Shown in pieces: positions 19,801-36,262 of a stretch of 64,000 nucleotides of DNA. The position numbers were made by a program, and so were the translations under genes. The notes under the pieces are model-generated. The model searched no databases and was not told the DNA's origin. It saw only the letters and a list, made by a program, of their open reading frames with translations. This stretch comes from Adineta vaga (taxonomy: Eukaryota; Animalia; Rotifera): the NCBI GenBank assembly GCA_021613535.1, contig CP075492.1:8133653-8197652 (forward strand), written 5' to 3'. How positions within the stretch are numbered: position 1 is the stretch's first letter; every line of letters starts with the position of its first letter.

Positions 19801-22800
19801 ATATATTCAATGAGATTTACTTGATATTGCTTTTTCACTACTTTCACTTTCCATCTGATTGAGTTGTTGTGAAAGTGATGTAAGAACTTGTCCAACAACA
19901 TTCTGATTTCCACTTGAAAGTAATTGTACCATTGGATTATTTGACAATGCTGCATCCGATGAACTCATTTGTACATTACTCATCAAATCATTCATGCTAA
20001 CACTATCAACAATCACTTGAACAGATGACATATTCACTTCTGTCACACAATCAACAAGATCTCGAACATAAATAATCATATGTAATAATGATGTTTGTTC
20101 ATCTCCAGCTGGTAACCGAACTTGAAATTGAGAAACAGATGAAAATGCAACCATTACTTTCTTTGATATATCACTTGTCCATACTACAATCATCATTTTA
20201 TACAAACATACATACATACATTGATCATATTCACAAACTTCTCTACATACCATATAATGAATAATCTTTGACTCCATCTTCATCATACCAATTGGGACAT
20301 GAAACAGTAAATGAACTTGTTGTTGTTCCATTCTTTGGATTCATCGTGCATGAACCATTCGAAGGCGATTGATTGATAACAAAATTCAATGCACTTGTAC
20401 TTGATTCATTTGCAAATTGATAAACAACTTCGAATCGCCATAATCGAATACTTGGATTATCAACAAATAAACGATATGATGCTGTAAAGTTACTTGTATT
20501 GCTTCCTAAAAAAACAAATGCATTTTCATTTTCATTCACACAAAACAACAACAACAACATCTTTACCAAAAAACCAAATATTCTCATATGTAATCATTCG
20601 ATCGAACAAAGTCCATTGAGTAGAATTCGAAGATGAATTACTATCACTTTTATAAATATTCCAATGAATATCGACAAGATTTTCACAAACTCCAACACAA
20701 AATGCAAACAATGCAACTTGTGTTGTTGGATTGACTAGTTGAAATTCAAGATTTGGTGAACATAATGTTGATATCACACAACTACAAGTACATGAAAACA
20801 GATCATCACATATATCTAACACTTAATCATTGAAATGACTTTACCCAATAACAACCAATTTTGGAAGTGTATCTTCGATTGTCACAGTAACAAAGCCTGT
20901 GGCTTGAATCGAAGCATTCTTGCGATTTTCCATATAAACCATGAATTGATACATTTGATTCGATTGAAGAGTACCAGACAGAAGTGTTAACGATGATTTT
21001 GGTGAAGAAGTCAAATTACCAAAGATTAAACCTGTTCCATTATCTTTATTTCAATATAAAATGAAAATAGATAGAAATTCTCATCAATCTCTATTCACCA
21101 TTCCTACCTGACCGATCCGACAAGCATGATGGATTCAATGGATCACTTTTCGAATTTTCAATTGTTAACAATCGTCCTTGACTATTTGGAAAATTATATG
21201 AACCATACCATCGACAATAATAGTCATATTTCCATTTCTAAACCAAAATAAAACATCATTTCATGCAATAAATACTCCTACAAATTCCAATAAACAACAA
21301 TCAATTCTTATCTACACGAATAACTGAGCATTGCCAAGCACAAATCTGCTCTTATCAATGATTGACTTACAAATGATCATCATTATCTACTAACATTCAT
21401 TTCAGTATAAAAATGTTAATTTATGACGATAGATTTCTATGCATGATCAAAAGATGACTGTTACTTACACTTGCATCGAATGCATCTTCATCAGGATCAA
21501 CTGAATACGATCCTGGATCAAGTTCAAGATCTTGTTCTTTACCACGTGTGATCATCGATGTTCCCAATGGAACAGGATTTGCTGTAATTCCTGATGGAGT
21601 TATCATGACATGAACTGAAGAAGATGATTTTGCACTTGGAAACTGTTTCATTGATACAGTTAAAGTCAGTTCATACATTCCATAAGCAAAAGTTCTTGAT
21701 GGAGCATAGAATTCACTCAACGTTGTACGGATCTTGTCACTCAATCCAATTCGATAGAGACATGAAGTCGAAGTACAATTCTTCACTGACCATTGTATCA
21801 GAGTTGTAAGTGATGCATTACAACGAAACTGAATTGTTGAACTGATGGAAAAATCTTGATTTCGTCGATATTGCAGTGGTGATGTCAAAGATGATCCACC
21901 AGGAATAAGTGTAATCGTCGGTGAATAACAAACTAATATTCAAATAACAAACATATACAGTCATAGTTTATGTCTTGCTACTGTAATATAATAATGTCAG
22001 ATATAGTTACCTTTGAACTCTTCTGTTGTTGTTACTGATGTTGTGGTTGACATTGGGTCATCTAAAAAGAATATATAGATATTTTCAGAGAGAGACACAA
22101 TGAACAACTATTTCAAGATAAATGAAAGTGATTAACATACCGGTAGACGTAATAGATGTAGTAGATGTTGCGGTGGATGTTGAAGTGGATGTAGTGGACG
22201 TGCTAGTAGACGTGCTGAATGAGGTGGTGGACGTGCTAGACGTGGTGGTGAATGTGCTGGTGGACGTGGCGATAGTAGTACTGGTGGACGTTGAAGTGGA
22301 TGTACTGGATGTGGTGGAAGACGTCGTAGTGGACGTGCTAGACGAGACGGTGGACGTACTGGACGTGGTGGTAGACGTCGTACTGGACGTGCTCGTGGAC
22401 GTTGAAGTGGATGTTGAACTGGATGTGATAGTGAATGTACTGGACGTGGTGGTAGAAGTACTGGTGGACGTTGAAGTGGATGTAGTGGACGTGGTGGTAG
22501 ACGTCGTAGTAGACGTGCTGAATGAGGTGGTGGACGTGCTAGACGAGATGGTGGATGTACTGGATGTGGTGGAAGACGTCGTACTGGACGTGCTCGTGGA
22601 CGTTGAAGTGGATGTTGAACTGGATGTGATAGTGAATGTACTGGACGTGGTGGTAGACGTCGTAGTAGACGTGCTGAATGAGGTGGTGGACGTGCTAGAC
22701 GAGATGGTGGATGTACTGGATGTGGTGGAAGACGTCGTACTGGACGTGCTCGTGGACGTTGAAGTGGATGTTGAACTGGATGTGGTGGTAGACGTGCTAG

Positions 22801-25800
22801 TTGAGGTACTGGATTGTGTTGCACTTGTCATCAAACTCGTTTCTTGCATATTATTTGTTCCAGTAGCTACTGTTGTTGGCACGCCAGATGTAAAAGGCAT
22901 CATACTCGTTTGAATCGTCGTCGGTGAGCCTGCAAATAATTAAGTTTAGACAGGTATTTCTTCACTCTAACACAGAACTAGTTGCTCAATATCACTTATT
23001 ATCTCTCTTTCAACAACTATGATATTCTCACTACTACTTCTTCCTCACAACAATTACTTACTACAATTCGTTTTCTGAGCAGAAAACATTTGAATTCGAC
23101 TATTATTTCGATCAGCAACATACATATTCCCATAACTATCAAATGCCATACTTTGTGGAAATGACAATTGACTTGCACTTGAACCACTAATACCATTACA
23201 ACCAACAATACATCGAAATCCATAAGGACCTGATCCAATGATTCGATGATTATAACTATCCACAATAAATAAATAACCGCTTTTATCCATCACAACTCCA
23301 CTAGGACAACGCAAAGTCATATCTCCGGATGATGAACCATTGCCAACAACAGTCTCTGCACTCATTTGTCCTATTGCTGACATACGCTGAATTCGATCAT
23401 TTCCACAGTCTGCAACATACAAGTTCATATTGCTATCCACATAGATTCCTTGAGGAAAACTAAGCATATTCGATGCTGATCCTGCACTTCCATTTCCTAA
23501 TATCACCCATGGAATACTTGTACCATTATTCAGTGAAACTTGTACTACTTGATGAATATCACGAAGTGAACAATACAAAGAATTATTACTATCAACAAAT
23601 AAACCATAACAACTTCCGTTCACCTTCATTACAGTCGTTACAATTGATGAATTAAATGAAAACTTATCTACTCGACCATTTGCATATCCATTATCAACAT
23701 AAACATCACCAGCCAATGAAACAAAAGTACTGTATGGACGATTCAAATTACCAGAGTTATTTCTTGTTGGTGTACTATCATACTGTGACCATATTAAAAC
23801 AATGTTATTCGATTGACTTGCAACATAAACAGTATTGATTCCATCAATGAAGATACCATAGGGTAATGAACCAATAGTAGTACTCGATGCAAATGTTGAT
23901 GCATTGGCAAACCATGAAGCATCGAAACAAAAGTTTGGTTGATTGTATGAAATACCTAGATGGACAAATGCATCAATTACCATTACAATAAAGTGTCTAC
24001 ATCAAAGAACGAATAGAAAACATCACTCACTACATGAATTGCTTGCTAAGAGAAACTTTTGAACTCGATAATTGACTTGATCAGCAACAAAGATATTTCC
24101 ATAACTATCGAAACTGAATTCTCGTGGACTATTCAGTTGACTAGATGATGAACCTGCAACTTTTGTACAACCAAACAAACATCGAAATCCATATGGACCT
24201 GATCCAATGAGTCGATTATTGTAGTTATCAGTTACAAATAAATATCCATTACCATCAAATGCAATATCATTTGGACAGTCAAATGTAAAGGTACCTGGTG
24301 CACCATTACCAGCTATGGTAATAGCATTCATTTGTCCCAAAGGAAACATTTGAATTCGATCATTACCACAATCTCCAACATATAAATTAAACTGATAGTC
24401 AACATAAATTCCACAAGGATAGTAAAGATCGCTTGCAGCTGAACTAGCACCACCTGTACCAGCTGCTATTGTATTAGTTGTGTCATTATTAGACAACCAT
24501 TTCTTTGCAACTCGATGACTGCCAGTCATTGAACAGTAGAGAGTATTAGTTGTGTCGACAAACAGATCATAACATTGTGCAGTAATTGTCATAGCCGATA
24601 TACCACTCGTGGAACTTGGACCCCATTTGTCTACTCGACCGTAACTGAGACCATTATCAAGATAAATATCACCGGAAAGTGTTGCGAAAATACTTAATGA
24701 TCCATCCATTCCACCAGTCAAATTTCTGTCAGGAAGAATACTTCCTTCTCTCCATACATATGATTGATCATTTAGCCAGCTAGGTATATAAACAGTATTA
24801 TTAACATCAACGAAGACTCCATAAACATAAGTATTAAGTATTCGAGTGTCTGCAAAAGTAACACCATCAGTATACCAAGTGGCGGATGGACAAAACTTCG
24901 GCTGATTGAAAGAAAAAGCTAGAATGAAACAAATAAAACTTAATGAGAAGAAAAATCACTACCTTCATGTCATGTCATCAATGTTTAAACATAGTTTTCA
25001 ACAAAGACTCAATTATAAGAAATCGTTCGTGAGATCAAAATCGACCACTCATTCGCATCATCAATATCGCTCATTGAACAGTCGATATATTCACAACTAT
25101 CTATCACCCTATTACTGAGTACATCATACTTACGATAAGTCGTATTTGGTTGTAGAATAAACTTTTGTATACGATAATTAATTCGATCAGCGACATAGAT
25201 ATTTCCATAGCTGTCAAAACTCATAGTTGATGGCAAATACAAACCACTTGATGTGCTACCAGCAGCGCCTGTACATCCAACTAAACAACGAAAACCATTC
25301 GATCCTGATCCAACAATACGATGATTACTACTATCCAAAATGAACAAATATCCATCACCGTCCAGCATCACATCACTAGGACAACTGAGTGAAATGGTCC
25401 CTGCGGCTGATGCACCTGCTATTGTAGTTGCAACTAATTGCCCTGATTGAAAGAGTTGAACGCGATTATTGCCACAATCAGCAACATACAGATTGAGAGA
25501 AGTGTCTACAAAAATCCCACGAGGCAAATAAAGCTTATTAGCAGTTGAACCAGAACAGTATGTTCCAGCACCGATAGTCCACATCGTAGAATTGTTATTT
25601 AACGATGTCATTGCAACTTGATGATAATCATACAATGAACAATAAAGATTGTTGCTGACATCAATAAAAATATCATAACATATATATTTAACAGACATGA
25701 CTGATGTTCGTATTGTTCCATTTGATGTATATTTATCAACACGCTTATATGAATATCCATTATCAATATAAATATCACCTGTTACTGTAGCAAAAATACT

Positions 25801-28800
25801 ATATGTATAGCCCACATCAGTTGTTATAGTACGACTAGGTGTAGTGCTTCCTTCGAGCCAAATTTGAATCTTGTTATCACCTCTATTTGCAACGTAGACA
25901 GTATTGTTTTTATCGACAAAAATACCAAAGGGTTCGACGCCCACTGTTGTACTCGTAGCGAATGTAATTGCATTTCCACTCCATATTGCATATGGACTAA
26001 ATTTTGGTTGATTGTATGAAATAACTATAACAAAATCACATTATATTTGGTTTTCATCGGGAGTTTTTTGACAACTGTGAAATTCTTCTACCTCAAAGTT
26101 ACTCATATAAGTCCTGTTGCGACGAAAACTGCATCATCATGATGCATATCATCGTTCTTTTATAAATAATCGAAATCAACAAAAGAGGAAATAGAAAAAT
26201 ACATGCATGTGTATGATTTATGTTGTCTCTTTCGACGACGAAATGAGTAGTGAATCTGATGAGAAACTTGCAATATCAATCTTTTTGTCCTTGTCATCTC
26301 TAATAGTAGAATAGATGATATAGATCATATAGTATCAGTGTTTGTCATAAGCTTTCTTACAAACGATGATCTATCATGTCAACTGAAACGGTAGTCTTAT
26401 TATTCGTAATCTCGCATGTATCATATTGTTAACGTAGCAGCTCTCGGAATTCTATCTTTTTCTCTCTCTCTCTCTATCTACCTTGTTATCTTTGTTTTCT
26501 ATTCTTCTATACATATATATATATATGTGTGTTCTTGTATGAAGAGGTTAGTTAGGTTTTTATTTTATATAAATAAACATCGTCAGCTCGAATACGAGCT
26601 AACATATTGGTGCCGTGACCGGTCTTTTTCTATTTTTTTCCATCGAAAAAGAATCAAGTACCAGGTCTTTATAAACTCATCCTTCATCAGGAAAGAGTGA
26701 TTATTATTTCATCCGTGACGGAAAGAGAGTCAGGTGAATTCATCAATCAAAATTATTAATTATAATTACTGAAATTATTCAGTCGAAGAAGGTATAGTAT
26801 TCTTCACATATACGATTCGCTTTCATTCTTTGAAAATATCTATACGAACACGGCTGACGGCATTCGAAGAAGAACAAAGAGAATAAGTGCAAACCTTTAT
26901 CCATACGAAATAATAACGTAATCATCAAAACAAACACGTCGGCAAAACACACGAAAAATTTGTCTATACACAACATGACGAAAGACACCGCATTAAACAA
27001 TACCTCGACGAACGAAACGCACTCGGACGATACGATGACGAAAAACACCTCGATGCTGATGGGAGCAACGAAAAATACCTCGACCGATGTGAACCCGATG
27101 GAACTTCGACAATTACATTCCAGTCAACAGGAAGCCATGAAGAAAATTAATGAGTATTCGGGAGAATCTAATGAATTGGATATTGATGAATGGTTATATG
27201 ATCTAACTAATTTATTCTCGCTAATGCAATTACAAGATGAAACAAAAATATTGTTGACGATGGGAAAATTAACCGGATCAGCATTACGATGGTATCAAGG
27301 AAATTTAACATCATTTGGTGATTGGAAGGAAGCAGAAGAAGCATTACGAGATCGATTCAAAACATTCACGTCAGATGGTCAATTAGTACAAGAATTCTTC
27401 CAGCTTCGACAAGAAGAAGATCAATCAACTACAGCATTTTACGATATGGTTATGCGCAAATATCGAAAAGCAAGTGGATTAGTTACTGAAAAACAAATCA
27501 TTACGGTACTACAAGCAGGTGTGAAACATTCATTGAAGGAACAATTAATTCGAAATGAAGTTAATATCTCGAAACCCGAAGAATGGCTGCTGATGGCAAG
27601 GGAAGAAGAACATATACAACGACGAATTCAACAACGCAATACACCACCACGAGCAGCAACACAAATACCATATTTCGAATCAACATTACCGACGGCAACA
27701 ATTCAACAATCATCATCGCATCGCCGATACGCACAACAACATGCCGGTGGAAATCAACAGGAATATCAACCATATGAACGACGTTCAAGTACAGTACGAC
27801 AACAACCAAATAATCGACGGAATACGACTCAACGGTCGAAACCATGTTTAATCTGCAATCGAACGAACCATTCGACGATGCAATGCTTCTATAAGAAGGA
27901 AGATGGTTGCTTTAGATGTGGACAGTCAAATCATCGAATACGTGATTGTCCGCAACGTTATTTTTTCGAGTAAAGGGATCGGTTGATGGCGACGATCCTT
28001 GTGGACTTCAAAAGTCATCATCATCGACAACAACATCAACATCATCACTTACAACAACAACTGAAACATACAATCCAATCTTTGTCAAAATCTTATGCAA
28101 TAATACTCCACAAGAAGCACTAATCGATACAGGATCGGCCATCACAATAATTCACAAACGTCTATTGAACAAGATCCCGCACAAACAATTTATACCACGA
28201 CTAAAGAATCATCTATCAGCCAGTTGCTCAGCAGTGAACATTATCGGCGAAGTAACATTATTCATCAATATCGAAGGAATTACGACTCAAGTGACTGCTG
28301 ATGTAGCAACAAATCTCGTTACAAATTTAATACTTGGTAGTGATTGGATTCAAACAAACAATGTATACATATTAACTCCCGAAAAGCGAATTATGATGAA
28401 AAAACGAGGTAGAGAAGTATCAACTCCTTTTATAAAACCACCAATTTTGAACTATCCAGCAACACTTGTTAATTATATTACACTTTCTCCTTTTTCAGAA
28501 CACATTATAGAAGCTCAACTGCAACAAGAAAAGATAGTCGATGCATTATTTGAACCAAATCCTCATTTACAACGTAAAGCATTATTTATGGCATGTACAT
28601 TACTTAACATCAACGACGGAAAAGCAACGATCAGTATCATAAATGCAACGAATCGACGACAAACACTTTCGGAAGGCACACGGATTGGTATGGTGACACA
28701 GATGGCAAATTCGGTTAATCTTATAGTACCATCGAACCATCCCGATGAACGCATTCCGAAAGGAAAAGCGTGTGAACAGCTCATTCCGAAAGGAAAAGTA

Positions 28801-31800
28801 GCGAATGAAGGAATTAGCAATGCCAGTTCGGAACATCGACAGACAACAACAACAGACAACACCGAGCACAAATGTCGAAACTGTTCACAACGATTCGTCG
28901 CAAAGAACGATTTATTCAAACACCTGCGTGAACAATGTTATCCTGATGAAATACGGGAACAAATTGGAAAATTAACTTCACATATTTCCGACGATACGCA
29001 ACGAAACAAGATCACGAATGTCCTATGGAGATACGGAAATTTATTCGATCTTCGACAACCATCAAAGATTGACATTATTTTGAAGAATGCAATCGACACA
29101 GGTATTCATAGACCAGTACATACTCCACCATATCGCAAATCCAACAGAGACCAAGAAACATTACGTGAAGAAACACAAAAACTACTGGAAAATGATATTA
29201 TTGAACATTCAACGTCGCCATGGTCATCACCTGTAGTACTAGTTAAAAAGAAAGATGGAACAACAAGATTTTGTGTAGATTATCGTCGACTCAATCAAAT
29301 TACAACTAAAGATGCTTTTCCATTACCACGAATTGATGATATTTATGATCAATTAACCCAAGCAACATATTTTAGCAAATTTGATTTCAAAGCAGGTTAT
29401 TTTCAAGTACCATTAGACAAAGCCGATCGACCAAAAACAGCATTTTCTACAAGAGATGGTCATTTCCAATTCAAAGTATTACCACAAGGACTTACAAATG
29501 GACCACCAACTTTTCAACGAATTGTCAATCAAATACTCGGTCCGAATCGATGGAAGCACATGTTGGCATACATCGATGATATTATAATATATTCACGAAC
29601 ATTTCTTGAACATGTACAACATATTGAAGAAGTATGTTCATTATTGCATGACGCAAATTTCAAGTTAAATATAGTAAAATGTGAAATCGCACGTACAGAA
29701 ATATTATTTCTCGGACACATCATCAAGCAAGGTACAATTCAACCAGATCCAGAAAACATCCGTGATTTAGCAGATGTTCGTGAACCAACATCAGCAGAAG
29801 AGGCATTCCGATTCGTCAAAGCTGCGGAATATTATCGCAAATTCATTCCAAAATTCTCGATCATTGCAGCACCACTACACAAATATTCACCAACAACATT
29901 ACAACAGCAGAAGAATAACAAGAAAACAAAATTCGAAATAACAGAAGAAGCACGAACAGCATTTCATCAACTGAAGCACATCTTAACAACGGATCTTATC
30001 CTCAATTTACCTGATGATGATATGCAATTTAAATTACAAACGGATGCAAGTGTCGATGGAATTGGTGCTGTTCTATTACAAATTACACCAAACGGTGATC
30101 GACCACTAGCATACATGTCGAAGAAATTAACCAAAACACAAATTAACTGGCCTACCATCGAACAAGAATGTTATGCAATTGTTCAAGCTGTGGAGAAATG
30201 GGACAAATATCTTCGTGGACAGGAATTTATTTTAGAAACAGATCATGAACCATTAGTCCACTTCAACAACAAAGAACAACTGAACAAAAGGTGTGAACGT
30301 TGGCGATTGCGACTAGCTGAATATCGATTCAAGGTGAAGCATATACAAGGTAAGAAGAATAATATGGCAGATTATTTATCTAGATCACCGGTGGAAATAG
30401 CTCATGAAGATAACGACGACCGACTTCAATATGAAACGAAATCAACACAAACAGAAACATCATCACCAACGTCCAACCATGAACATCCACCTGTACGAAT
30501 AATCACAGCTATTACACGAGCTCAAGCAAAATTACAACAGCAGAATGAGCTCATCCCGCAAGGGAAAGAAGCGAAAACTCAATCGGAGGATGATCCGAAT
30601 CGGATCATACCCTTCGATTTGGACGATCTCAGGGAAGCACAGGAACGAGATGATGTCGTGAAACAAATTAAAACCAACATCAACAAACAAAAGCAATATA
30701 CAATAGAAGACGGATTATTATTACGAAGACAAAAATCATCAATTTTAGCAGTACCATTTGTTTCACAGGGAAGAATGCGTGCTGATATTTTGAAAATTTA
30801 TCATGATACACCTGGTAATGGTGCACATTTTGGTCGTGACAAAACAGTACGAAAAATACAAGAACGATATTACTGGCCAACAATGACAGCAGATATTGAA
30901 AATCATGTCAAATCCTGTTTACCATGTGCACAGAACAATCATCGTCGTCAAAAACCACCAGGAAAATTACAACCAATACCACCACCTGATGGAATATGGA
31001 AAGTACTTAGTATGGATTTCCATGGACCAATAAATCCAACAACACGACGAGGTAATCGATACATTATATCATTAACCGATGTCTTATCAAAATTCGTCAT
31101 AACAAAAGCAGTTCGCGATTGTTCAGCAAAAACAACAGTTGATTTCCTTACCAACGATGTTATCTTGAAATATGGAACACCAACATGCATTTTAACTGAT
31201 AATGGTACTCACTTCACAGCAGAAACAACGAACAATTTACTTATGAAACTTGGTGTCACTCATTTATATACAACAGCTTATCATCCACAAACAAATGGAC
31301 AAATTGAACGTTTTAATGCAACAATGGATGGTAAAATAGCATCATTATGCAACGAACAACGTACAGATTGGGATGAAATGTTACAATTCGTTACATTTAA
31401 TTACAACACATCCATACATGCAACAACAAAACATACACCATTTGAAATGATGCACGGTCGACAAGCTAGTCTTCCATTCGATCAACAACGGACACTTATT
31501 TCACTTACAAACGACACTGAACATGGAGAAAAACTTCGAAATTACCTGGAAAAATTAACAGATGATGCACGGAAAAATATTCATAAATCTCAGCAACAAT
31601 ATAAGACTCGATATGATCAACATCGACAAGAATTATCGATCAAAATTAATGATTTAGTCCTGATTAAAACCAGAAGTTTTCGAAACAAATTCGATATTAG
31701 GTACGAAGGTCCATTTCGAATTATCGAACAATTAGGAAGAAAAACATTCATTGTACAACATGTGAAGAAAACAACATTAACAAAACAAGTTACAATGGAT

Positions 31801-34800
31801 GTCATCGTTCCATTAGTAGAACGATGGAATTTACATGACTAAACACATCCCACTAGGGAAAGGTGTAAATCGACTGTGAACATAATTGACTTCATTAAAA
31901 TGTATATTTATATTTATATGAATAAAATACATGAATTTGATTTAGCAGATCATGTCGGGGAGATAGGTTTCCCCTTCTCACTGATAAGATGGGGCTATCA
32001 AAGATATATATATATATCACATAGTCATATATGTATAAGCGACATCTATTTTTTTCTATTCATATGAACATTTAATCGATATATCATGGCGATCACGTGC
32101 AGACGACATGATACGACGGATGATCCATATGGACGAAGCCGATTACCTTACAAGAACACGACACGGTCGATCTCACCACATCACAGAACAGGAAAGAAAA
32201 AGATGTAAACAAGATCATATAGTCATGCCACTTTCATCTATACGCGTATATGACGACGCGAGTATTTATATATATATATATACCCAGGTCGAAAAATCCG
32301 AGCCGGATCCGGTCGGAACCAAAATATTCCGGTCATTTCATGGAAGCAGGATTCCGACCCGGATATTTTCGGATTTTTCCACTCGCTTCTGACTAACTTC
32401 CAGTAAGTTCCAGTCGGAAAACGACTGGAATTCACCAGAACAGTCCGAGAAATTCCGATCGGAATACTGCTTCCACTCTCCTTTGTTTTCCGGTTGGAAC
32501 CTTTTGGAACTAGCTGAAACCGTCCGGAATATCCTCGGAAATGCGTGATTTCTGGCAGGTTCCTTTCGGATCCGGAGGCCGGAACGTCCGTTCTGGGTAT
32601 AACGGACAGGAAAGAAAGAAAAAAGGACAACAAAGGAATGAAAAATTTTAGGAAACGAAAAACAAAAGCATGGAAAATTACGAAGAAAAACAGAAGAAAG
32701 AAGAACGAAAGGATAACCTTTCACCGGAGTGACCGTCGCCAGACTATCAAGTAAATCACTTTATTTACTTTATTTATTTTCTAATAGTAGAATGCACTCA
32801 ACAAAATCACCAAAATCAAGCTGGATGAGAAACCAACGACAGATGGAGAAGAATGAAGAACTTCGAGGATTACATCCCGAATATCGTCCATCAGCAAATC
32901 TCGAAATTGTCCACGTACATCATCGATCGACCATACAATCAATCGAAGAATTAATAAAAAAGGCAATACAAACAAGAAGATTCGTCGTCGATACAGAATC
33001 TCAATGGAAAATATTACGAAAAGGTGAACCTCGAACAAATGGAGCTTTGATCCAAATCCAGATGATACATTCACCAAGCAAGTCAACAGTGGTCCTCATC
33101 GAAACATGTTATCTACCAGGCACAACATCAACGTTATACAAGAAAATCAAACAATTGTGTGACACCATCTTCGACAACAACAATGAAATTATCACATGGG
33201 GACCAATCGAGCAAAAATTTGAGCCTTTTCATCATTTAAATTTCATTCATTTAGGAGCAATTCGTGAATGTGACTTGCAATTCTACATTAGCAATCCAAG
33301 TCAAATTTATGATTCGCATCCAGAAATGGAAAGGCGAGAGACAACCGGAAATGTGTCGATGGAAATCAACACACCTGGTGATGAACTTATCGTCCATGTG
33401 GACGAGGATGATTTGTGGAACTTCGACGATAATCTCGGTAATTTTCGAAAAAAAGAAAAATTGAATCCACCTTTAGGTTTACAAGCCGTCGTGGCCGAAA
33501 ACTTCAACAAATTTCTGGACAAATCGTACACAAAAAATGAATGGAACTGTGGATTAGATCTTCATTTAGGAACATGGCAAGAAAAACGATTTAGCAAAGG
33601 TCAATATGATAAATATCAAGAACAACAAGAACGTACAGAAATGATACGATATGCCGTCAACGATTGTGCATCGGTTGCTGAACTTTACTTTGAAAAATAT
33701 CCGGAAACAACGAACGATTACTTGACACCACCAGAAACGCCAACAACAACAATCATTCAAATTTCACACCTGAACACAATCTCCTCTTCGAATGAACAAG
33801 AATTAAGTCAACGATCAAAATCAAATCATGGTGAGACATTGACTAAAAAAGAAATATATTTAGATCGACCAGATTTGTTATTCAAAATGAACGAAGATGA
33901 ACTTGTACAATTTCAACAACCAGTATTCGACAAAGTGGAAGAACCAGTTCAACAAGCACAACAACCAGTTCCACAACAATTTCAACGAACACCTGAAGAA
34001 GAACATCAAAAGAAGAAAGAAAGACAAAGGAAGAAGAACGAAAAATACAAGGAGAAGAAAAGAACTCGTCCAGATTTTATAAATCGTCTAACAAGACCCA
34101 TCTACTACAAATACAACTACCAAAAAATTCGAGCTCAACTGATAGACGATGAAATACATCACACACATCAAATCAACATTAATGAAGACAAAGATGCAGT
34201 GACGATCAACTTCAAGTCCCGAGAGTTACTTGAAGCAGCAAGAACAAAAATGCGGGTGAATTATTTTTCAGAAAATCAATACTACAGGAGATGGGGAAGA
34301 AGAAAAGAAGAAAAAAAGAAGAATTAGTGGTGGTGGTGATTCACATGTGTGAGGACACACGATCTCATACTGGTGGGGAAGAATGTTAACGTAGCAGCTC
34401 TCGGAATTCTATCTTTTTCTCTCTCTCTCTCTATCTACCTTGTTATCTTTGTTTTCTATTCTTCTATACATATATATATATATGTGTGTTCTTGTATGAA
34501 GAGGTTAGTTAGGTTTTTATTTTATATAAATAAACATCGTCAGCTCGAATACGAGCTAACACATATGATTTGTGAGATCTATGCATTGATCAACTATTCA
34601 AAAGTATGATTGTCTCTCATACTCTTCTCAACTTGTTTTTTTTCCTTGATCGATTTTCATCAATCATTCTCACTGACCTTTCCAACAACTTATTCATAAT
34701 TCACTATCGATATTTGCACCCTTAGAATTATAGTTCAAAAGATCTGTACGAAAAAGTACACTAAACAATCAGATTACCATTTGAATAAGAACTTGGCACA

Positions 34801-36262
34801 GAGGATGCACTTGTTGGAATGATGCTCGATGATGCTGTTACTAAAAAAGGATAAAAGCAATTGTTTATCAATATCGAAATGAGAATGAGAGTGTGATTAA
34901 CATACCAGTAGCAGTTGTTGTTGTAGTTGACGTTCCATCTACAATAAATAAACTTGCCTTTAATTGTCATATTAAGATCGCTGATAAAGACAGATCTAAC
35001 TGATGAACTATCTAAGCTATTCTCATTTGGAATATACAAATAGTTCTATTCTAATAAACAAAGTCTCAATCAAGTCTGAACAGTATCTTGCAGAGAAATA
35101 ATTGTACTTACTACAAACATTTGTTGATATAAGAAATTTTTGAACTCGATTGTTATCTCGATCAGTGATAAATATGTTTCCATAAGTATCGAAACTGAAA
35201 CTCGATGGACTATCTAATTGAGAAGATGATGAGCCACTTCCACTGCATCCCAACACGCAGCGAAAACCATACGGTCCAGAACCAACAACCCGAAAATTCT
35301 CGCTATCGAGAATAAAAAGATAACCATCAGCATCAAGTGCTACATCTGTAGGCGAATTGAGTGTAATAGTTCCTGCAGCTGAAGCACCTGCTACAGCTGT
35401 TCCAGTCAGTTGACCATATGCATACAATTGAATTCGATGATTGCCTGAATCCGCAAGATATAAATTCAGATTGATATCAACAAAGATTCCGCGTGGATAA
35501 CAGACTGTTGTCGTTGTGGATCCGCAAGCAGCTGTACCTGCTACAATGCTCCAAAGATTTAAACGATTAGTCAGTGAATTGCTGGAAACTTGATGATTAT
35601 CATACATAGAACAGTAAAGATTATTATTCGTATCAATGAAGAGATCATAACATGTTCCACATGTATACAACGCTGGGATGCTGTCAGTAGAATTCGTTTG
35701 CCATCGATCAACTCTATTATTTGTTTGGCCATTGTCAACAAAAATATCACCATTATCAGTGGCAAACACACTATATGGAAGATTTAAACCACTCGAAAGA
35801 TTTCGAATAGATGTTGTACTTCCTTCTAACCACACATGAACTCGACTGGATTCGCGATTTGCTATATAAACGGTATTGTTGGAGTTGACAAAAATACCAT
35901 TAGGAGTTGAGCCAACAATTGTATTTGTTGCAAATGTTAAGGCCGTTGCATTCCATGATGCATTCGGACAAAATTTTGGTTGATTGTACGAGATAGCTGA
36001 AAAAGAAAAAAATGACAATTTTCGCTCTAAACAAATTACTCATATCAATCTTTTCTAACTGATCCATTTCTCTCCTCATATTTGTCTCTCATGAGAATTG
36101 TTCAGTACAAATCTCTCGACAAAAACTATGACTATTATCAGCAACATCTATCTCATTTTGACAATGAAAACAAGAAAACACAATCTTTCAAAGATACTTA
36201 CCAACTGCTCCATCAATAATCAACAAAAAACACCAGAAAGTGAGATGATGAAATCTTGCCAT
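13816..36262 (-). CDS. Very large multi-exon gene for a secreted polycystin-1/REJ-like (PKD1-like) receptor-channel with four N-terminal NHL beta-propeller modules; spans the LTR retrotransposon, which sits in one of its introns
   Basis: Exon chain traced by eye. Signal-peptide exon, then NHL1, two S/T linker exons, an intron containing the LTR element, then NHL2, NHL3, NHL4. These are followed by the S/T tandem-repeat exon, a 51-nt exon, the REJ-region exons, GPS+TM1, PLAT, TM exons, the polycystin extracellular domain, the 6TM channel and a C-terminal tail. All N-terminal exons checked are phase 1-1 with canonical GT/AG. Exon boundaries in the REJ/TM region were not all traced. Confidence 0.6.
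14036..14797 (-). CDS. PKD-channel (TRPP-like) pore-forming transmembrane exon
   Basis: Multiple TM helices with the polycystin cation-channel pattern (FFRFNHRVSLFTETLRIAANELIQFFLMFSIVYMSYLTLFYLLF...GPFCFTLFIFVVVFVCLSMFLSIINDSF). The C-terminal tail exon at 13816..14001 probably ends the gene. Confidence 0.6.
   Translation of the reverse strand: MYLAFTSVLQIVCTILCMLFIIYFMKVEIQSVIQLKTRYFRQFWSIIQIGIIVCSWTSVGVYIWRFRESARVSNLFEKTNGYVYINLQLAAYVNDILTYLLGYCCFFGMIKFVHFFRFNHRVSLFTETLRIAANELIQFFLMFSIVYMSYLTLFYLLFVSKLSSCSSLLSTAQMLFEITLMKFDATELIEAGAFLGPFCFTLFIFVVVFVCLSMFLSIINDSFRRAKETRIEDQIILSFMWKKFIQYTGKSVY
14825..15472 (-). CDS. Polycystin (PKD1/PKD2) extracellular loop domain exon
   Basis: TIEQYWNWLENSFVDNLRAQQWYNGD...YVGEHETYRGGGYVYEFRGS...QLEWIDSKTRAVFIQMTLYNPNV, the conserved polycystin-domain pattern between channel TM1 and TM2. 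Confidence 0.6.
   Translation of the reverse strand: MTIEQYWNWLENSFVDNLRAQQWYNGDAARYLNGYLNDKSNRLIGWAMMRQLRIKTELCDDQRLITRCEHSYSIFNEDKRSFEPGWINETTMVTMSGGKYSSSIMKAFRYRSSDELDTYAYVGEHETYRGGGYVYEFRGSLSDMKKNLSQLHQLEWIDSKTRAVFIQMTLYNPNVKLLTSVTLLTEFLLTGGVFPSARFDPINFYSKYFLIIVCN
16921..17133 (-). CDS. PLAT/LH2 domain exon of the PKD1-like protein
   Basis: IRIWHDNSGAGSSASWYLKYIIVRDLETMEKFYFIAQKWLAVEQDDGRV, the typical polycystin-1 PLAT signature (WHDNSG...SWYL...V.DL.T...F.....WLAVE.DDG). Confidence 0.65.
   Translation of the reverse strand: MNVKKRIDEMIFRSLGLLNYIRIWHDNSGAGSSASWYLKYIIVRDLETMEKFYFIAQKWLAVEQDDGRVS
17477..17707 (-). CDS. GPS motif plus first transmembrane helix of the PKD1-like protein
   Basis: ECLSNHLTTFAGGFIVLPAPINWSYVF (C-x-C/H-L-T-x-F-A...L GPS consensus), followed by VYLTMICTSVLYIILMIYGRFKDKKD. 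Confidence 0.6.
   Translation of the reverse strand: MTNHYETECLSNHLTTFAGGFIVLPAPINWSYVFANADFMKNKTVYLTMICTSVLYIILMIYGRFKDKKDIEKVNM
21421..21965 (-). CDS. REJ-module exon of the PKD1-like gene (approximate bounds)
   Basis: Acceptor tattag|TTTGTTATTCACCGACG. The sequence SPLQYRRNQDFSISSTIQFRCNASLTTLIQWSV...YGMYELTLTV matches the REJ (receptor for egg jelly) module pattern. Further REJ-region exons run between ~18000 and 21250 (ORFs 18084..18512, 18545..18937, 19807..20331, 20243..20587). Confidence 0.5.
22141..22929 (-). CDS. Mucin-like Ser/Thr-rich exon (789 nt, phase 1-1) of the PKD1-like gene
   Basis: Acceptor ttatttgcag|GCTCACCGACG. Almost pure S/T composition with about five copies of a 52-aa unit. 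Ends ...ACC G|GTATGTTAATCAC. Confidence 0.6.
22200..22830. repeat. Tandem repeat, period 156 bp (52 codons), ~4-5 copies, encoding the S/T mucin-like region
   Basis: The string gacgtgctgaatgaggtggtggacgtgctagacgagatgg recurs at ~22516 and ~22672 (156 bp apart). Diverged copies lie at ~22213 and ~22360. Confidence 0.7.
23062..23955 (-). CDS. NHL beta-propeller cassette exon 4 (894 nt, phase 1-1)
   Basis: A 75-nt intron ends at ccatctag|GTATTTCATACAATCAACC, giving SISYNQPNFCFDASW. NHL blades are present (YGNMYVADRNNSRIQMF, GYLFIVDSYNHRIIGSGPYGFRCIVGC). It ends ...TNC+A at a |GTAAGTAATTG donor. Confidence 0.65.
24031..24918 (-). CDS. NHL beta-propeller cassette exon 3 (888 nt, phase 1-1)
   Basis: Acceptor ttcattctag|CTTTTTCTTTCAATCAGCCG gives (P)FSFNQPKFCPSATW. 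NHL blades are present (YGNIFVADQVNYRVQKF, GYLFVTDNYNNRLIGSGPYGFRCLFGC). It ends ...NSC+A at a |GTGAGTGA donor. Confidence 0.65.
25134..26024 (-). CDS. NHL beta-propeller cassette exon 2 (891 nt, phase 1-1)
   Basis: Acceptor ttgttatag|TTATTTCATACAATCAACC gives IISYNQPKFSPYAIW. NHL blades are present (YGNIYVADRINYRIQKF, GYLFILDSSNHRIVGSGSNGFRCLVGC). It ends ...PNTTY+C at a |GTAAGTATG donor. Confidence 0.65.
26427..26604 (+). repeat. 5' LTR (178 bp, TG...CA)
   Basis: Matches 34384..34561 exactly by eye. Contains (CT)7 and (AT)7 microsatellites. The six-frame ORFs 26416..26700 and 34349..34609 are simply the two LTR copies read through. Confidence 0.8.
26608..26619 (+). promoter_or_regulatory. 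Primer-binding site complementary to the 3' end of tRNA-His
   Basis: TGGTGCCGTGAC lies 3 nt after the LTR. Its reverse complement GTCACGGCACCA equals the canonical eukaryotic tRNA-His 3' terminus (...GAGTCACGGCA-CCA). Confidence 0.6.
26975..27973 (+). CDS. gag (capsid/nucleocapsid) with two CCHC zinc knuckles
   Basis: ATG at 26975. Zinc knuckles CLICNRTNHSTMQC and CFRCGQSNHRIRDC lie near the C-terminus. The stop is at 27971..27973. Confidence 0.75.
   Translation: MTKDTALNNTSTNETHSDDTMTKNTSMLMGATKNTSTDVNPMELRQLHSSQQEAMKKINEYSGESNELDIDEWLYDLTNLFSLMQLQDETKILLTMGKLTGSALRWYQGNLTSFGDWKEAEEALRDRFKTFTSDGQLVQEFFQLRQEEDQSTTAFYDMVMRKYRKASGLVTEKQIITVLQAGVKHSLKEQLIRNEVNISKPEEWLLMAREEEHIQRRIQQRNTPPRAATQIPYFESTLPTATIQQSSSHRRYAQQHAGGNQQEYQPYERRSSTVRQQPNNRRNTTQRSKPCLICNRTNHSTMQCFYKKEDGCFRCGQSNHRIRDCPQRYFFE
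27946..31842 (+). CDS. pol polyprotein: aspartic protease, reverse transcriptase, RNase H, integrase (Ty3/gypsy order)
   Basis: Protease LIDTGSA. RT motifs FSKFDFKAGYFQ and YIDDIIIYS. RNase H TDASVDGIGAVL. Integrase zinc finger H-x4-H...C-x2-C (HDTPGNGAHFGRDKT...CLPCAQN), DDE core (SMDFHGP ... LTDNGTHFT ... E) and a GPF/Y-like tail (RYEGPFRIIEQLG). Confidence 0.85.
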   Translation: MSATLFFRVKGSVDGDDPCGLQKSSSSTTTSTSSLTTTTETYNPIFVKILCNNTPQEALIDTGSAITIIHKRLLNKIPHKQFIPRLKNHLSASCSAVNIIGEVTLFINIEGITTQVTADVATNLVTNLILGSDWIQTNNVYILTPEKRIMMKKRGREVSTPFIKPPILNYPATLVNYITLSPFSEHIIEAQLQQEKIVDALFEPNPHLQRKALFMACTLLNINDGKATISIINATNRRQTLSEGTRIGMVTQMANSVNLIVPSNHPDERIPKGKACEQLIPKGKVANEGISNASSEHRQTTTTDNTEHKCRNCSQRFVAKNDLFKHLREQCYPDEIREQIGKLTSHISDDTQRNKITNVLWRYGNLFDLRQPSKIDIILKNAIDTGIHRPVHTPPYRKSNRDQETLREETQKLLENDIIEHSTSPWSSPVVLVKKKDGTTRFCVDYRRLNQITTKDAFPLPRIDDIYDQLTQATYFSKFDFKAGYFQVPLDKADRPKTAFSTRDGHFQFKVLPQGLTNGPPTFQRIVNQILGPNRWKHMLAYIDDIIIYSRTFLEHVQHIEEVCSLLHDANFKLNIVKCEIARTEILFLGHIIKQGTIQPDPENIRDLADVREPTSAEEAFRFVKAAEYYRKFIPKFSIIAAPLHKYSPTTLQQQKNNKKTKFEITEEARTAFHQLKHILTTDLILNLPDDDMQFKLQTDASVDGIGAVLLQITPNGDRPLAYMSKKLTKTQINWPTIEQECYAIVQAVEKWDKYLRGQEFILETDHEPLVHFNNKEQLNKRCERWRLRLAEYRFKVKHIQGKKNNMADYLSRSPVEIAHEDNDDRLQYETKSTQTETSSPTSNHEHPPVRIITAITRAQAKLQQQNELIPQGKEAKTQSEDDPNRIIPFDLDDLREAQERDDVVKQIKTNINKQKQYTIEDGLLLRRQKSSILAVPFVSQGRMRADILKIYHDTPGNGAHFGRDKTVRKIQERYYWPTMTADIENHVKSCLPCAQNNHRRQKPPGKLQPIPPPDGIWKVLSMDFHGPINPTTRRGNRYIISLTDVLSKFVITKAVRDCSAKTTVDFLTNDVILKYGTPTCILTDNGTHFTAETTNNLLMKLGVTHLYTTAYHPQTNGQIERFNATMDGKIASLCNEQRTDWDEMLQFVTFNYNTSIHATTKHTPFEMMHGRQASLPFDQQRTLISLTNDTEHGEKLRNYLEKLTDDARKNIHKSQQQYKTRYDQHRQELSIKINDLVLIKTRSFRNKFDIRYEGPFRIIEQLGRKTFIVQHVKKTTLTKQVTMDVIVPLVERWNLHD
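27961..27967 (+). other. Putative -1 ribosomal frameshift slippery heptamer UUUUUUC at the gag/pol overlap
   Basis: In the gag frame it reads T TTT TTC, 4 nt before the gag stop. pol is open in the -1 frame from 27946 and continues FFRVKGSVDGDD... through the heptamer. Confidence 0.5.
32280..32610. other. GC-rich island inside the retrotransposon, between pol and ORF3, dense in CCGGA/TCCGG/GGAAC/GTTCC motifs
   Basis: Local GC is far above the window background. It holds more than 15 occurrences of the CCGGA(A)/(T)TCCGG core, several as inverted pairs (ccggatccgg, tccggaggccgga). It is flanked by (TA)n runs and contains a CAG|GTAAGT-like donor at ~32404. The antisense ORFs 32238..32633 and 32338..32724 are artefacts of this composition. 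Confidence 0.5.
32792..34327 (+). CDS. ORF3 of the LTR retrotransposon: DEDDy-type 3'-5' exonuclease domain with a Lys/Arg-rich C-terminal tail (~511 aa)
   Basis: The ATG at 32792 sits directly after an acceptor-like tttattttctaatag. Exo I is FVVDTES (D-x-E) and Exo III is RYAVNDCASVAELYF (Y-x3-D), about 240 aa apart. Candidate Exo II acidic residues lie at HVDEDDLWNFDD. The C-terminus is basic: KKKERQRKKNEKYKEKKRTRPDF...RRWGRRKEEKKKN*. The stop lies 45 nt before the PPT. Confidence 0.55.
   Translation: MHSTKSPKSSWMRNQRQMEKNEELRGLHPEYRPSANLEIVHVHHRSTIQSIEELIKKAIQTRRFVVDTESQWKILRKGEPRTNGALIQIQMIHSPSKSTVVLIETCYLPGTTSTLYKKIKQLCDTIFDNNNEIITWGPIEQKFEPFHHLNFIHLGAIRECDLQFYISNPSQIYDSHPEMERRETTGNVSMEINTPGDELIVHVDEDDLWNFDDNLGNFRKKEKLNPPLGLQAVVAENFNKFLDKSYTKNEWNCGLDLHLGTWQEKRFSKGQYDKYQEQQERTEMIRYAVNDCASVAELYFEKYPETTNDYLTPPETPTTTIIQISHLNTISSSNEQELSQRSKSNHGETLTKKEIYLDRPDLLFKMNEDELVQFQQPVFDKVEEPVQQAQQPVPQQFQRTPEEEHQKKKERQRKKNEKYKEKKRTRPDFINRLTRPIYYKYNYQKIRAQLIDDEIHHTHQININEDKDAVTINFKSRELLEAARTKMRVNYFSENQYYRRWGRRKEEKKKN
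34384..34561 (+). repeat. 3' LTR (178 bp)
   Basis: Same sequence as the 5' LTR. Preceded by the polypurine tract GGTGGGGAAGAA (34372..34383) and followed by the CATAT TSD. Confidence 0.8.
34778..34840 (-). CDS. 63-nt Ser/Thr/Pro linker exon (VTASSSIIPTSASSVPSSYSN, phase 1-1)
   Basis: Acceptor ccttttttag|TAACAGC ... CAAATG|gtaatctg donor. It lies immediately upstream of the LTR retrotransposon's 3' LTR. Confidence 0.4.
34906..34938 (-). CDS. 33-nt Thr-rich linker exon (phase 1-1)
   Basis: Acceptor ttattgtag|ATGGAACGTCAACTACAACAACAACTGCTACTG|gtatgttaatcac donor. The donor sequence is the same as the one after the large S/T repeat exon at 22141. Confidence 0.4.
35112..35996 (-). CDS. NHL beta-propeller cassette exon 1 (885 nt, phase 1-1)
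   Basis: Begins (A)ISYNQPKFCPNASW after the acceptor cag|. It contains repeated NHL blades (YGNIFITDRDNNRVQKF, GYLFILDSENFRVVGSGPYGFRCVLGC). It ends ...NVC+A at a |GTAAGTAC donor. Confidence 0.65.
36202..36262 (-). CDS. Exon 1 of the PKD1-like gene: signal peptide MARFHHLTFWCFLLIIDGAV
   Basis: ATG on the minus strand at 36262. A 20-codon hydrophobic leader is followed by a G|GTAAGTA donor. An intron of ~200 nt ends at tttttctttttcag, just before the NHL1 exon. Confidence 0.55.

Follow-up and report, generated by a model that had tools for sequence, protein, structure and literature searches.

A GC-rich block between pol and ORF3 of an Adineta vaga LTR retrotransposon is very probably a nested foldback-type MITE

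Here we examine a 64,000-nucleotide (nt) stretch of the genome of the bdelloid rotifer Adineta vaga (contig CP075492.1, positions 8,133,653 to 8,197,652; hereafter the window), in which a Ty3/gypsy long terminal repeat (LTR) retrotransposon carries a conspicuous GC-rich island between pol and a third open reading frame (ORF3). The island had been interpreted, in an original prediction made from the letters of the window, as a possible regulatory module of the retrotransposon. Our data indicate, with a high degree of confidence, that it is a ~300-bp foldback-type miniature inverted-repeat transposable element (MITE), that is, a non-autonomous cut-and-paste DNA transposon, nested in the pol-ORF3 spacer. 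The GC richness, the density of CCGGAA/TTCCGG and the partial palindromes of the island are traits of this MITE family and not elements of retrotransposon regulatory design.

The evidence lies in the membership of the island in a repeat family that is dispersed in bdelloid rotifer genomes, in its defined termini and target duplication, in its absence from related retrotransposons and in its presence at unrelated loci. Nowell et al. 2021 (PMC7943196) treat the MITEs of bdelloids only in bulk, and we found no published description of the family to which the window copy belongs.

Results

Composition and structure of the island

With a GC content of 0.49 (positions 32285-32615), the island stands out both from the LTR element that contains it (0.369) and from the whole window (0.319). 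The strong enrichment claimed in the original prediction is real, although the block measures 315 bp instead of ~330 bp and the element is richer in GC than the ~30% assigned to it. The limits of the island are sharp (CCCAGGTCGAA...CTGGG, with TA on either side), the order in the window being TA, then CCCAGGTCG...GTTCTGGG, then TA. Bracketing by (TA)n tracts was confirmed for the left side alone, where (TA)8 abuts the island; on the right there is only TATA, and the other tract, (TA)7, is situated 265 nt upstream, at 32004-32018.

Motif counts were judged against a baseline of 2000 dinucleotide-preserving shuffles of the island itself. The dense, partly palindromic GGAA/TTCC-core motifs described earlier are present (CCGGATCCGG at 32303, TTCCGGTTGGAACC at 32488 and TCCGGAGGCCGGAAC at 32571), and their density does exceed what composition would lead one to expect: not one shuffle reached the counts observed for GGAA/TTCC (20 vs 7.5 expected), TCCG/CGGA (22 vs 6.5) or CGGAA/TTCCG (10 vs 2.4), and 29 of the 2000 reached that of CCGGAA/TTCCGG (4 vs 0.8). 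The actual repeat unit is a palindrome, TTCC-N2-4-GGAA, found three times where 0.13 were expected (0/2000 shuffles); repeat family D3 is a form of it, TCCRRTYGGAA, with four copies. The proposed resemblance of these motifs to ETS or heat-shock-element (HSE) cores did not survive counting. HSE units (TTCnnGAA/GAAnnTTC) number zero in the island and ETS cores ([AC]GGAA[GA]) are not enriched (3 vs 2.1 expected), and on these counts the identity of the cluster as HSE or ETS sites was rejected.

The entire block forms one long imperfect palindrome of nested inverted repeats (pairs I5, I7, I3 and I4), in which 32279-32320 pairs with 32558-32601, 32341-32364 with 32452-32475, and 32398-32422 with 32485-32509. 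Alignment of the island to its own reverse complement scored 100, compared with -8 +/- 17 for shuffles (~6 standard deviations), and computed fold energies were strong for the + strand (-137.5 kcal/mol, z -6.4) and for the - strand (-139.8 kcal/mol, z -7.1). Since both strands fold equally strongly, the structure is that of a DNA-level inverted repeat rather than of a strand-specific RNA element. An Rfam scan of positions 31800-32900 produced no hit at the gathering threshold, the best score being 22 bits where 66 and 83 were needed; sub-threshold hairpin matches at 32342-32474 were to mir-957 (E 0.061) and MIR7504 (E 0.43).

Dispersed copies at unrelated loci

A blastn search of the whole spacer against the window revealed no second copy of the island. 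Copies were reached by way of a 131-aa minus-strand ORF spanning the island, which was translated and searched against protein collections; it matched 17 cluster representatives, and a profile trimmed and built from these matched 151 "proteins". Common to the matched "proteins" is a segment, PRSNIPATGS...ARIFRPG, set in mutually unrelated flanks, the first and last codons of which are the terminal CCCAG and CTGGG of the island. Two of the matches are named hypothetical proteins of A. vaga and Adineta ricciae; for the A. vaga one, P0071, no corresponding DNA could be located. No Pfam family matched the ORFs across the island, and the "homologues" of these ORFs are repeat copies in translation.

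The closest copy to the island comes from A. ricciae (locus L016), where it is located between a PhzF-family gene and the gene for ribosomal protein S11; its left 36 nt are 97% identical to the window copy and its right 156 nt 83%, with the interior deleted. Another copy (L017), ~70% identical to the island, sits in a 3.3-Mb ENA contig with ordinary host genes around it, for example those for V-ATPase subunit H and chitin-binding (CBM_14) proteins, and reads TA, then CCCAGGTCGAAAAAT...TTCGACCTGGG, then TA. The window, L016 and L017 agree at every position of a 22-nt core, TCCGRTCGGAATACTGCTTCCA, which also occurs unchanged in 82 metagenome contigs; many of these contigs break near the repeat. 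A two-arm exact pattern (CCGGATCCGNNNGGAACC...GGTTCCNNNCGGATCCGG) gave 0 matches over the metagenome contigs because it is too specific to the diverged window copy. None of 84 MITE-bearing loci (260 kb) encodes the gag, pol or ORF3 of the window element.

Several side observations concern the same family. Well over 100 database "hypothetical proteins" (P0071-P0194), including A. vaga and A. ricciae entries, correspond to translated MITE copies and are gene-prediction artefacts, and a further protein, P0070 (1259 aa), consists of tandem 56-residue (168-bp) units weakly similar to the island translation. The A. ricciae copy lacks ~140 nt of interior (10083-10093 of L016 vs window 32308-32457), and its junction joins two copies of the motif TCCG(R)TCGGAA, which suggests a deletion between the element's own short repeats. 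The conserved core appears as an invariant "GSSIP" in 15 translated copies and is identical across subfamilies otherwise ~65% identical (L016, L017 and L018-L099); its inverted partner, TGGAAGCAGKATTCC, is likewise conserved between MITE subfamilies.

Termini, target duplications and consensus of the family

In an alignment of 44 copies, conservation climbs abruptly at the column of window position 32283 and falls after that of 32597, mean pairwise identity being 0.69 within the element compared with 0.32 and 0.35 for the two flanks. Most copies are 240-330 bp long, with a few shorter and internally deleted. The family consensus comprises 296 nt at 53% GC and contains 22 instances of GGAA/TTCC, seven of CCGGAA/TTCCGG and four TTCC-N4-GGAA palindromes; its termini, CCCAGGTCGAAAATTACGGG compared with the reverse complement CCCAGGTCGAAGATTACGGC, match at 18 of 20 positions, and the whole folds as a single hairpin (DNA z -15.3).

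Target duplications of 2 bp flank 14 of the 28 unique full copies, where 3.65 were expected and none of 2000 permutations reached that number; the same copies gave no signal for duplications of 3 or 4 bp. Among the duplicated dinucleotides TA leads (4/14), the remainder being a mixture of TT, AA, AG, AC, TG, TC and CA. Copies ending in CCTGGG or TCTGGG, which most resemble the window copy, have TA at all of their right flanks and most of their left ones. A strict TA (Tc1/mariner, Stowaway-like) assignment of the family as a whole was rejected on the count of TA duplications just given.

Absence from related retrotransposons

The comparison set consisted of 15 loci of related elements (L001-L015) with the same gag-pol-ORF3 layout and with ORF3 45-62% identical. 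The pol-ORF3 spacer spans 950 nt in the window, compared with 584, 520 and 573 nt in relatives, and in a three-way MAFFT alignment the island corresponds to a single clean gap in the relatives, with flanking spacer blocks conserved. The island had no blastn match in L001-L015 at E<=0.01. Conservation of presence and position, as would be expected of an integral cis-element of the retrotransposon, is thus not seen among these loci.

The host retrotransposon

Coordinates of the host element, of the island and of other features of the spacer are collected in Table 1. By its coding content the host appears to be a bdelloid Juno/Vesta-like Ty3/gypsy element with a DEDDy-exonuclease-like ORF3, a type that is already known (Rodriguez et al. 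2017, PMC5408684). It shares with Juno and Vesta a Ty3/gypsy gag-pol, short LTRs and an ORF3 that appears related to exonucleases of the RNase D/WRN type and whose homologues are found in Rotaria and Adineta; what sets the window copy apart is the added 315-bp MITE and a lengthened purine tract between pol and ORF3. The likeness is to Juno and Vesta as a type.

Table 1. Features of the host retrotransposon and of its pol-ORF3 spacer, in window coordinates
Feature	Position	Strand	Details
Ty3/gypsy LTR retrotransposon	26427-34561		8.1 kb; hosts the GC-rich island
5' LTR	26427-26604	+	178 bp, TG...CA; 99% identical to 34384-34561
Primer-binding site TTGGTGCCGTGACC	following the 5' LTR	+	
gag ORF	26960-27973	+	capsid and CCHC zinc knuckle; PF03732 (Retrotrans_gag) 1.6e-7, PF00098 (zf-CCHC) 2.8e-5
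pol ORF	27946-31842	+	1298 aa, uninterrupted; protease, reverse transcriptase, RNase H, integrase
Conserved non-coding block	31944-32000	+	~100 nt after the pol stop; TGTCGGGGAGAYAG...CTTYTCACTGAYAGGGAGGGG-TTGTC
(TA)8 tract	32267-32282		adjoins the left end of the island; last TA (32281-32282) is the left putative 2-bp duplication copy
GC-rich island, very probable MITE copy	32283-32597		315 bp, CCCAGGTCGAAAAAT...CGTTCTGGG
Left terminal inverted repeat region	32283-32320		pairs I5, I7; first 13 nt as in the family consensus
Inverted partner TGGAAGCAGGATTCCGA of the conserved core	32341-32357		pair I3
22-nt core TCCGATCGGAATACTGCTTCCA	32454-32475		most conserved in the family; contains one TTCC-N4-GGAA palindrome
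Right terminal inverted repeat region	32558-32597		pairs I5, I7; diverged from consensus; ending CGTTCTGGG also in the A. ricciae copy
Right putative TA target duplication copy	32598-32599		
Purine-rich (A/G) host-spacer tract	32606-32711	+	~105 nt, outside the MITE; AT skew up to 0.74; families D1, D5
Conserved block RATAACCTTTNACCG(N)GTGACC	32712-32738	+	55-80 nt upstream of the ORF3 ATG
Acceptor-like pyrimidine-rich tract ending in AG	32760-32787	+	4 nt before the ORF3 ATG
ORF3	32792-34327	+	511 aa, predicted DEDDy (RNase D/WRN-type) 3'-5' exonuclease-like
3' LTR	34384-34561	+	polypurine tract GGTGGGGAAGAA before it (34372-34383), CATAT after it

The element is flanked at both ends by a 5-bp target duplication, CATAT, the left copy of which occupies 26422-26426, and pol gave Pfam matches to RVT_1 (7.9e-37), RT_RNaseH (1.9e-34), Integrase_H2C2 (4.1e-20) and rve (3.1e-11). 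ORF3 has 69 homologues, and all those with a species name are from Rotaria or Adineta. The exonuclease profile PF01612 matches the window ORF3 below threshold (13.7 bits, E 0.055; cut-off 23.6), and among the homologues P0010 passes the gathering score with 25.3 bits, whereas P0001 scores 17.6 bits; ORF3 is accordingly best described as a predicted DEDDy 3'-5' exonuclease-like protein, not an env-like one. The host is young and otherwise intact (LTRs 99% identical; gag, pol and ORF3 all open), and the insertion of the MITE appears to be tolerated, because the three retrotransposon ORFs are intact and the LTRs nearly identical.

The primer-binding site (window 26607-26621, TTGGTGCCGTGAC(C/T)GG) is near-identical in all examined lineages (L009, L012 and L013), with LTRs diverged. 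The host element interrupts a minus-strand tandem array of ~310-aa paralogous ORFs (window 23054-25944 and 35023-36018), in which members of repeat families D2-D8 are spaced ~970 and 1100 nt apart, and ~9970 nt apart across the insertion. Window positions 22085-22913 (46.6% GC, GC skew +0.44) contain 9-12-nt periodic repeats and long ORFs on both strands, and look like a low-complexity repeat-coding region or a minisatellite.

Candidate signals for ORF3 expression

The original prediction had pointed to an acceptor-like site just before ORF3, placed as if to splice it onto a 5' leader in the manner of retroviral env. The sequence itself, tttattttctaatag followed by tagaATG, is indeed present, with AG at 32786-32787 and ATG at 32792, whereas the comparison with env falls, ORF3 not being env-like but a predicted exonuclease-like protein. 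A pyrimidine tract with AG also precedes the ORF3 ATG by 15-21 nt in L001, L010 and L011, which with the window makes four of six lineages; L009 and L012 have no equivalent site before the ATG, and the background density of acceptor-like sites is 1-3 per kb. That the site serves splicing is plausible, and would agree with the general statement of Rodriguez et al. 2017 (PMC5408684) that LTR retrotransposons usually express their ORF3s by way of splicing. Spliced-leader trans-splicing occurs in rotifers, and the site may instead serve that process. The arrangement, seen in the window and in three of the five related lineages, recalls the expression of retroviral and errantiviral env from a spliced subgenomic mRNA in that an acceptor-like tract and AG come shortly before the ATG; it differs in that ORF3 is not env and no donor was identified.

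Two non-coding blocks of the spacer are conserved outside the island. The block at 31944-32000 is common to the window, L001, L009 and L012, and is kept even though the L012 ORF3 is only 45% identical; the L009 and L012 versions have a G-rich stretch and then TGT, reminiscent of the junction of their own 3' polypurine tract with the LTR start, the window version being more diverged, and the block may represent a central polypurine tract. The block at 32712-32738 is common to the window, L001, L009, L010 and L011. As signals for ORF3 expression, these two blocks and the acceptor-like site are more promising candidates than the island. Between the MITE and the second block, the purine tract at 32606-32711 is made of degenerate 21-28-nt repeats, and relatives have much shorter purine runs; it appears to be a second, independent expansion of spacer length.

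Discussion

On the interpretation that we favour, a transposase supplied in trans would recognise the ~20-bp terminal inverted repeats of the element (CCCAGGTCGAAAATTACGG) and probably also the repeated subterminal TTCC-N4-GGAA palindromes, and the MITE would have integrated into non-coding DNA between pol and ORF3 of a young Juno/Vesta-like element with duplication of a TA dinucleotide. The transposase most likely binds at the palindromes and the terminal repeats, a role suggested by analogy to Ac/Ds and CACTA elements, which have subterminal repeats. For the expression of ORF3, an insertion of this kind would presumably be neutral.

The window family resembles known MITEs and foldback elements (Stowaway-like, Tourist-like, Foldback) in its length of ~300 bp, its non-coding character, its terminal inverted repeats and short target duplication, its many dispersed copies, some of them internally deleted, the folding of the entire element as a hairpin, and its nesting in a transposable element, as is often seen. 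It differs from them in being GC-rich (53%) in a genome of ~30% GC and in having no identified autonomous partner, and from Stowaway and Tc1/mariner elements in a 2-bp duplication that is not restricted to TA (4/14). Like CACTA/EnSpm and Ac/Ds elements, it has several copies of a short motif, in this case TTCC-N4-GGAA, lying in both orientations internal to its ends. Target duplications in the CACTA group are 2-3 bp long; the termini of the window family are CCCAGG and not CACTA, and no transposase was found in the window or at 99 loci. We regard the possible resemblance to CACTA/EnSpm and Ac/Ds as a lead.

Several points weigh against the nested-MITE interpretation or limit it. Half of the full copies (14/28) have no recognisable 2-bp duplication, and the window copy is 65% identical to a consensus derived from metagenomes, with a diverged right terminus. 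No transposase or autonomous partner with matching termini was found in the window or at 99 loci, and the superfamily is therefore left unassigned. The "empty-site" relatives belong to different families, with at most 62% full-length ORF3 identity (one partial homologue reaches 75%), and global alignments with L001 and L010 aimed at the exact pre-insertion sequence were ambiguous, owing to internal repeats and to excessive divergence of the spacers, so that the absence of the island rests on spacer lengths, the MAFFT gap and the lack of a blast match. The comparisons were with elements of other families, and the MITE may have arrived either before or after the integration of this retrotransposon copy. 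Finally, the inserted DNA may now influence ORF3 transcription.

The original prediction saw in the island a possible integral cis-module of the retrotransposon, evolved for ORF3 expression as an internal promoter or enhancer, an internal ribosome entry site (IRES) or an export RNA element. Its strongly structured sequence, lying between pol and ORF3 ~200 nt upstream of the ORF3 ATG, would suit such a module, as would the need of ORF3 for some expression route (PMC5408684), but the island is absent from all 15 related loci with the same ORF3, has homologous copies at unrelated loci without retroelement genes, bears the hallmarks of a transposon, folds equally well on the + and - strands, and has neither HSE motifs nor an excess of ETS cores, while the conserved non-coding blocks of the spacer lie elsewhere, at 31944-32000 and 32712-32738. 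Comparative data already largely refute this proposal, and we consider it barely credible. We attach just as little credence to the possibility that the dispersed family represents structured non-coding RNA genes, such as long-hairpin or microRNA-like precursors, one of which was captured by template switching during reverse transcription. The long hairpin fold and the weak matches to mir-957 and MIR7504 would agree with it; against this, the best Rfam score remains far under the gathering thresholds, terminal inverted repeats, 2-bp duplications at multiple loci and internally deleted copies are signatures of transposons, and the TA dinucleotides on both sides of the window copy fit integration and not template switching.

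A less remote, though still improbable, scenario accepts the origin of the island as a MITE and supposes that it has since been co-opted, either as a promoter or a set of transcription-factor sites for ORF3, or through its hairpin of about -137 kcal/mol as a feed for small-RNA silencing. The ~315-nt near-perfect hairpin in genomic RNA might, for instance, act as a double-stranded RNA trigger of silencing, or the core and its inverted partner might form a hairpin small-RNA or transcription-factor site that drives ORF3; we judge these specific versions similarly unlikely. Such roles would be compatible with the position of the insertion in a young element with three open ORFs and LTRs 99% identical, with the great stability of the hairpin, with the conservation of the core and its partner between subfamilies otherwise ~65% identical, and with the coverage of bdelloid LTR elements by small RNAs (PMC5408684). 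However, a single such copy is known, the conservation of the core is explained equally well by transposase binding, and most MITE insertions are neutral. If the scenario were true, a MITE would have changed how a retrotransposon is regulated in an anciently asexual animal.

Both MITEs and transposons nested in one another are commonplace, and the main value of the nested-MITE interpretation is one of correction: what appeared to be a regulatory island in a retrovirus-like element is a second transposon lodged in the first. The same analysis points out the genuinely conserved non-coding blocks of the pol-ORF3 spacer (31944-32000 and 32712-32738) and shows many "hypothetical proteins" in databases to be MITE copies in translation. 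For a GC-rich foldback MITE family that occurs in Adineta and, abundantly, in metagenome contigs, it also supplies defined termini, a consensus and a 2-bp duplication, which could improve the annotation of repeats in bdelloid genomes.

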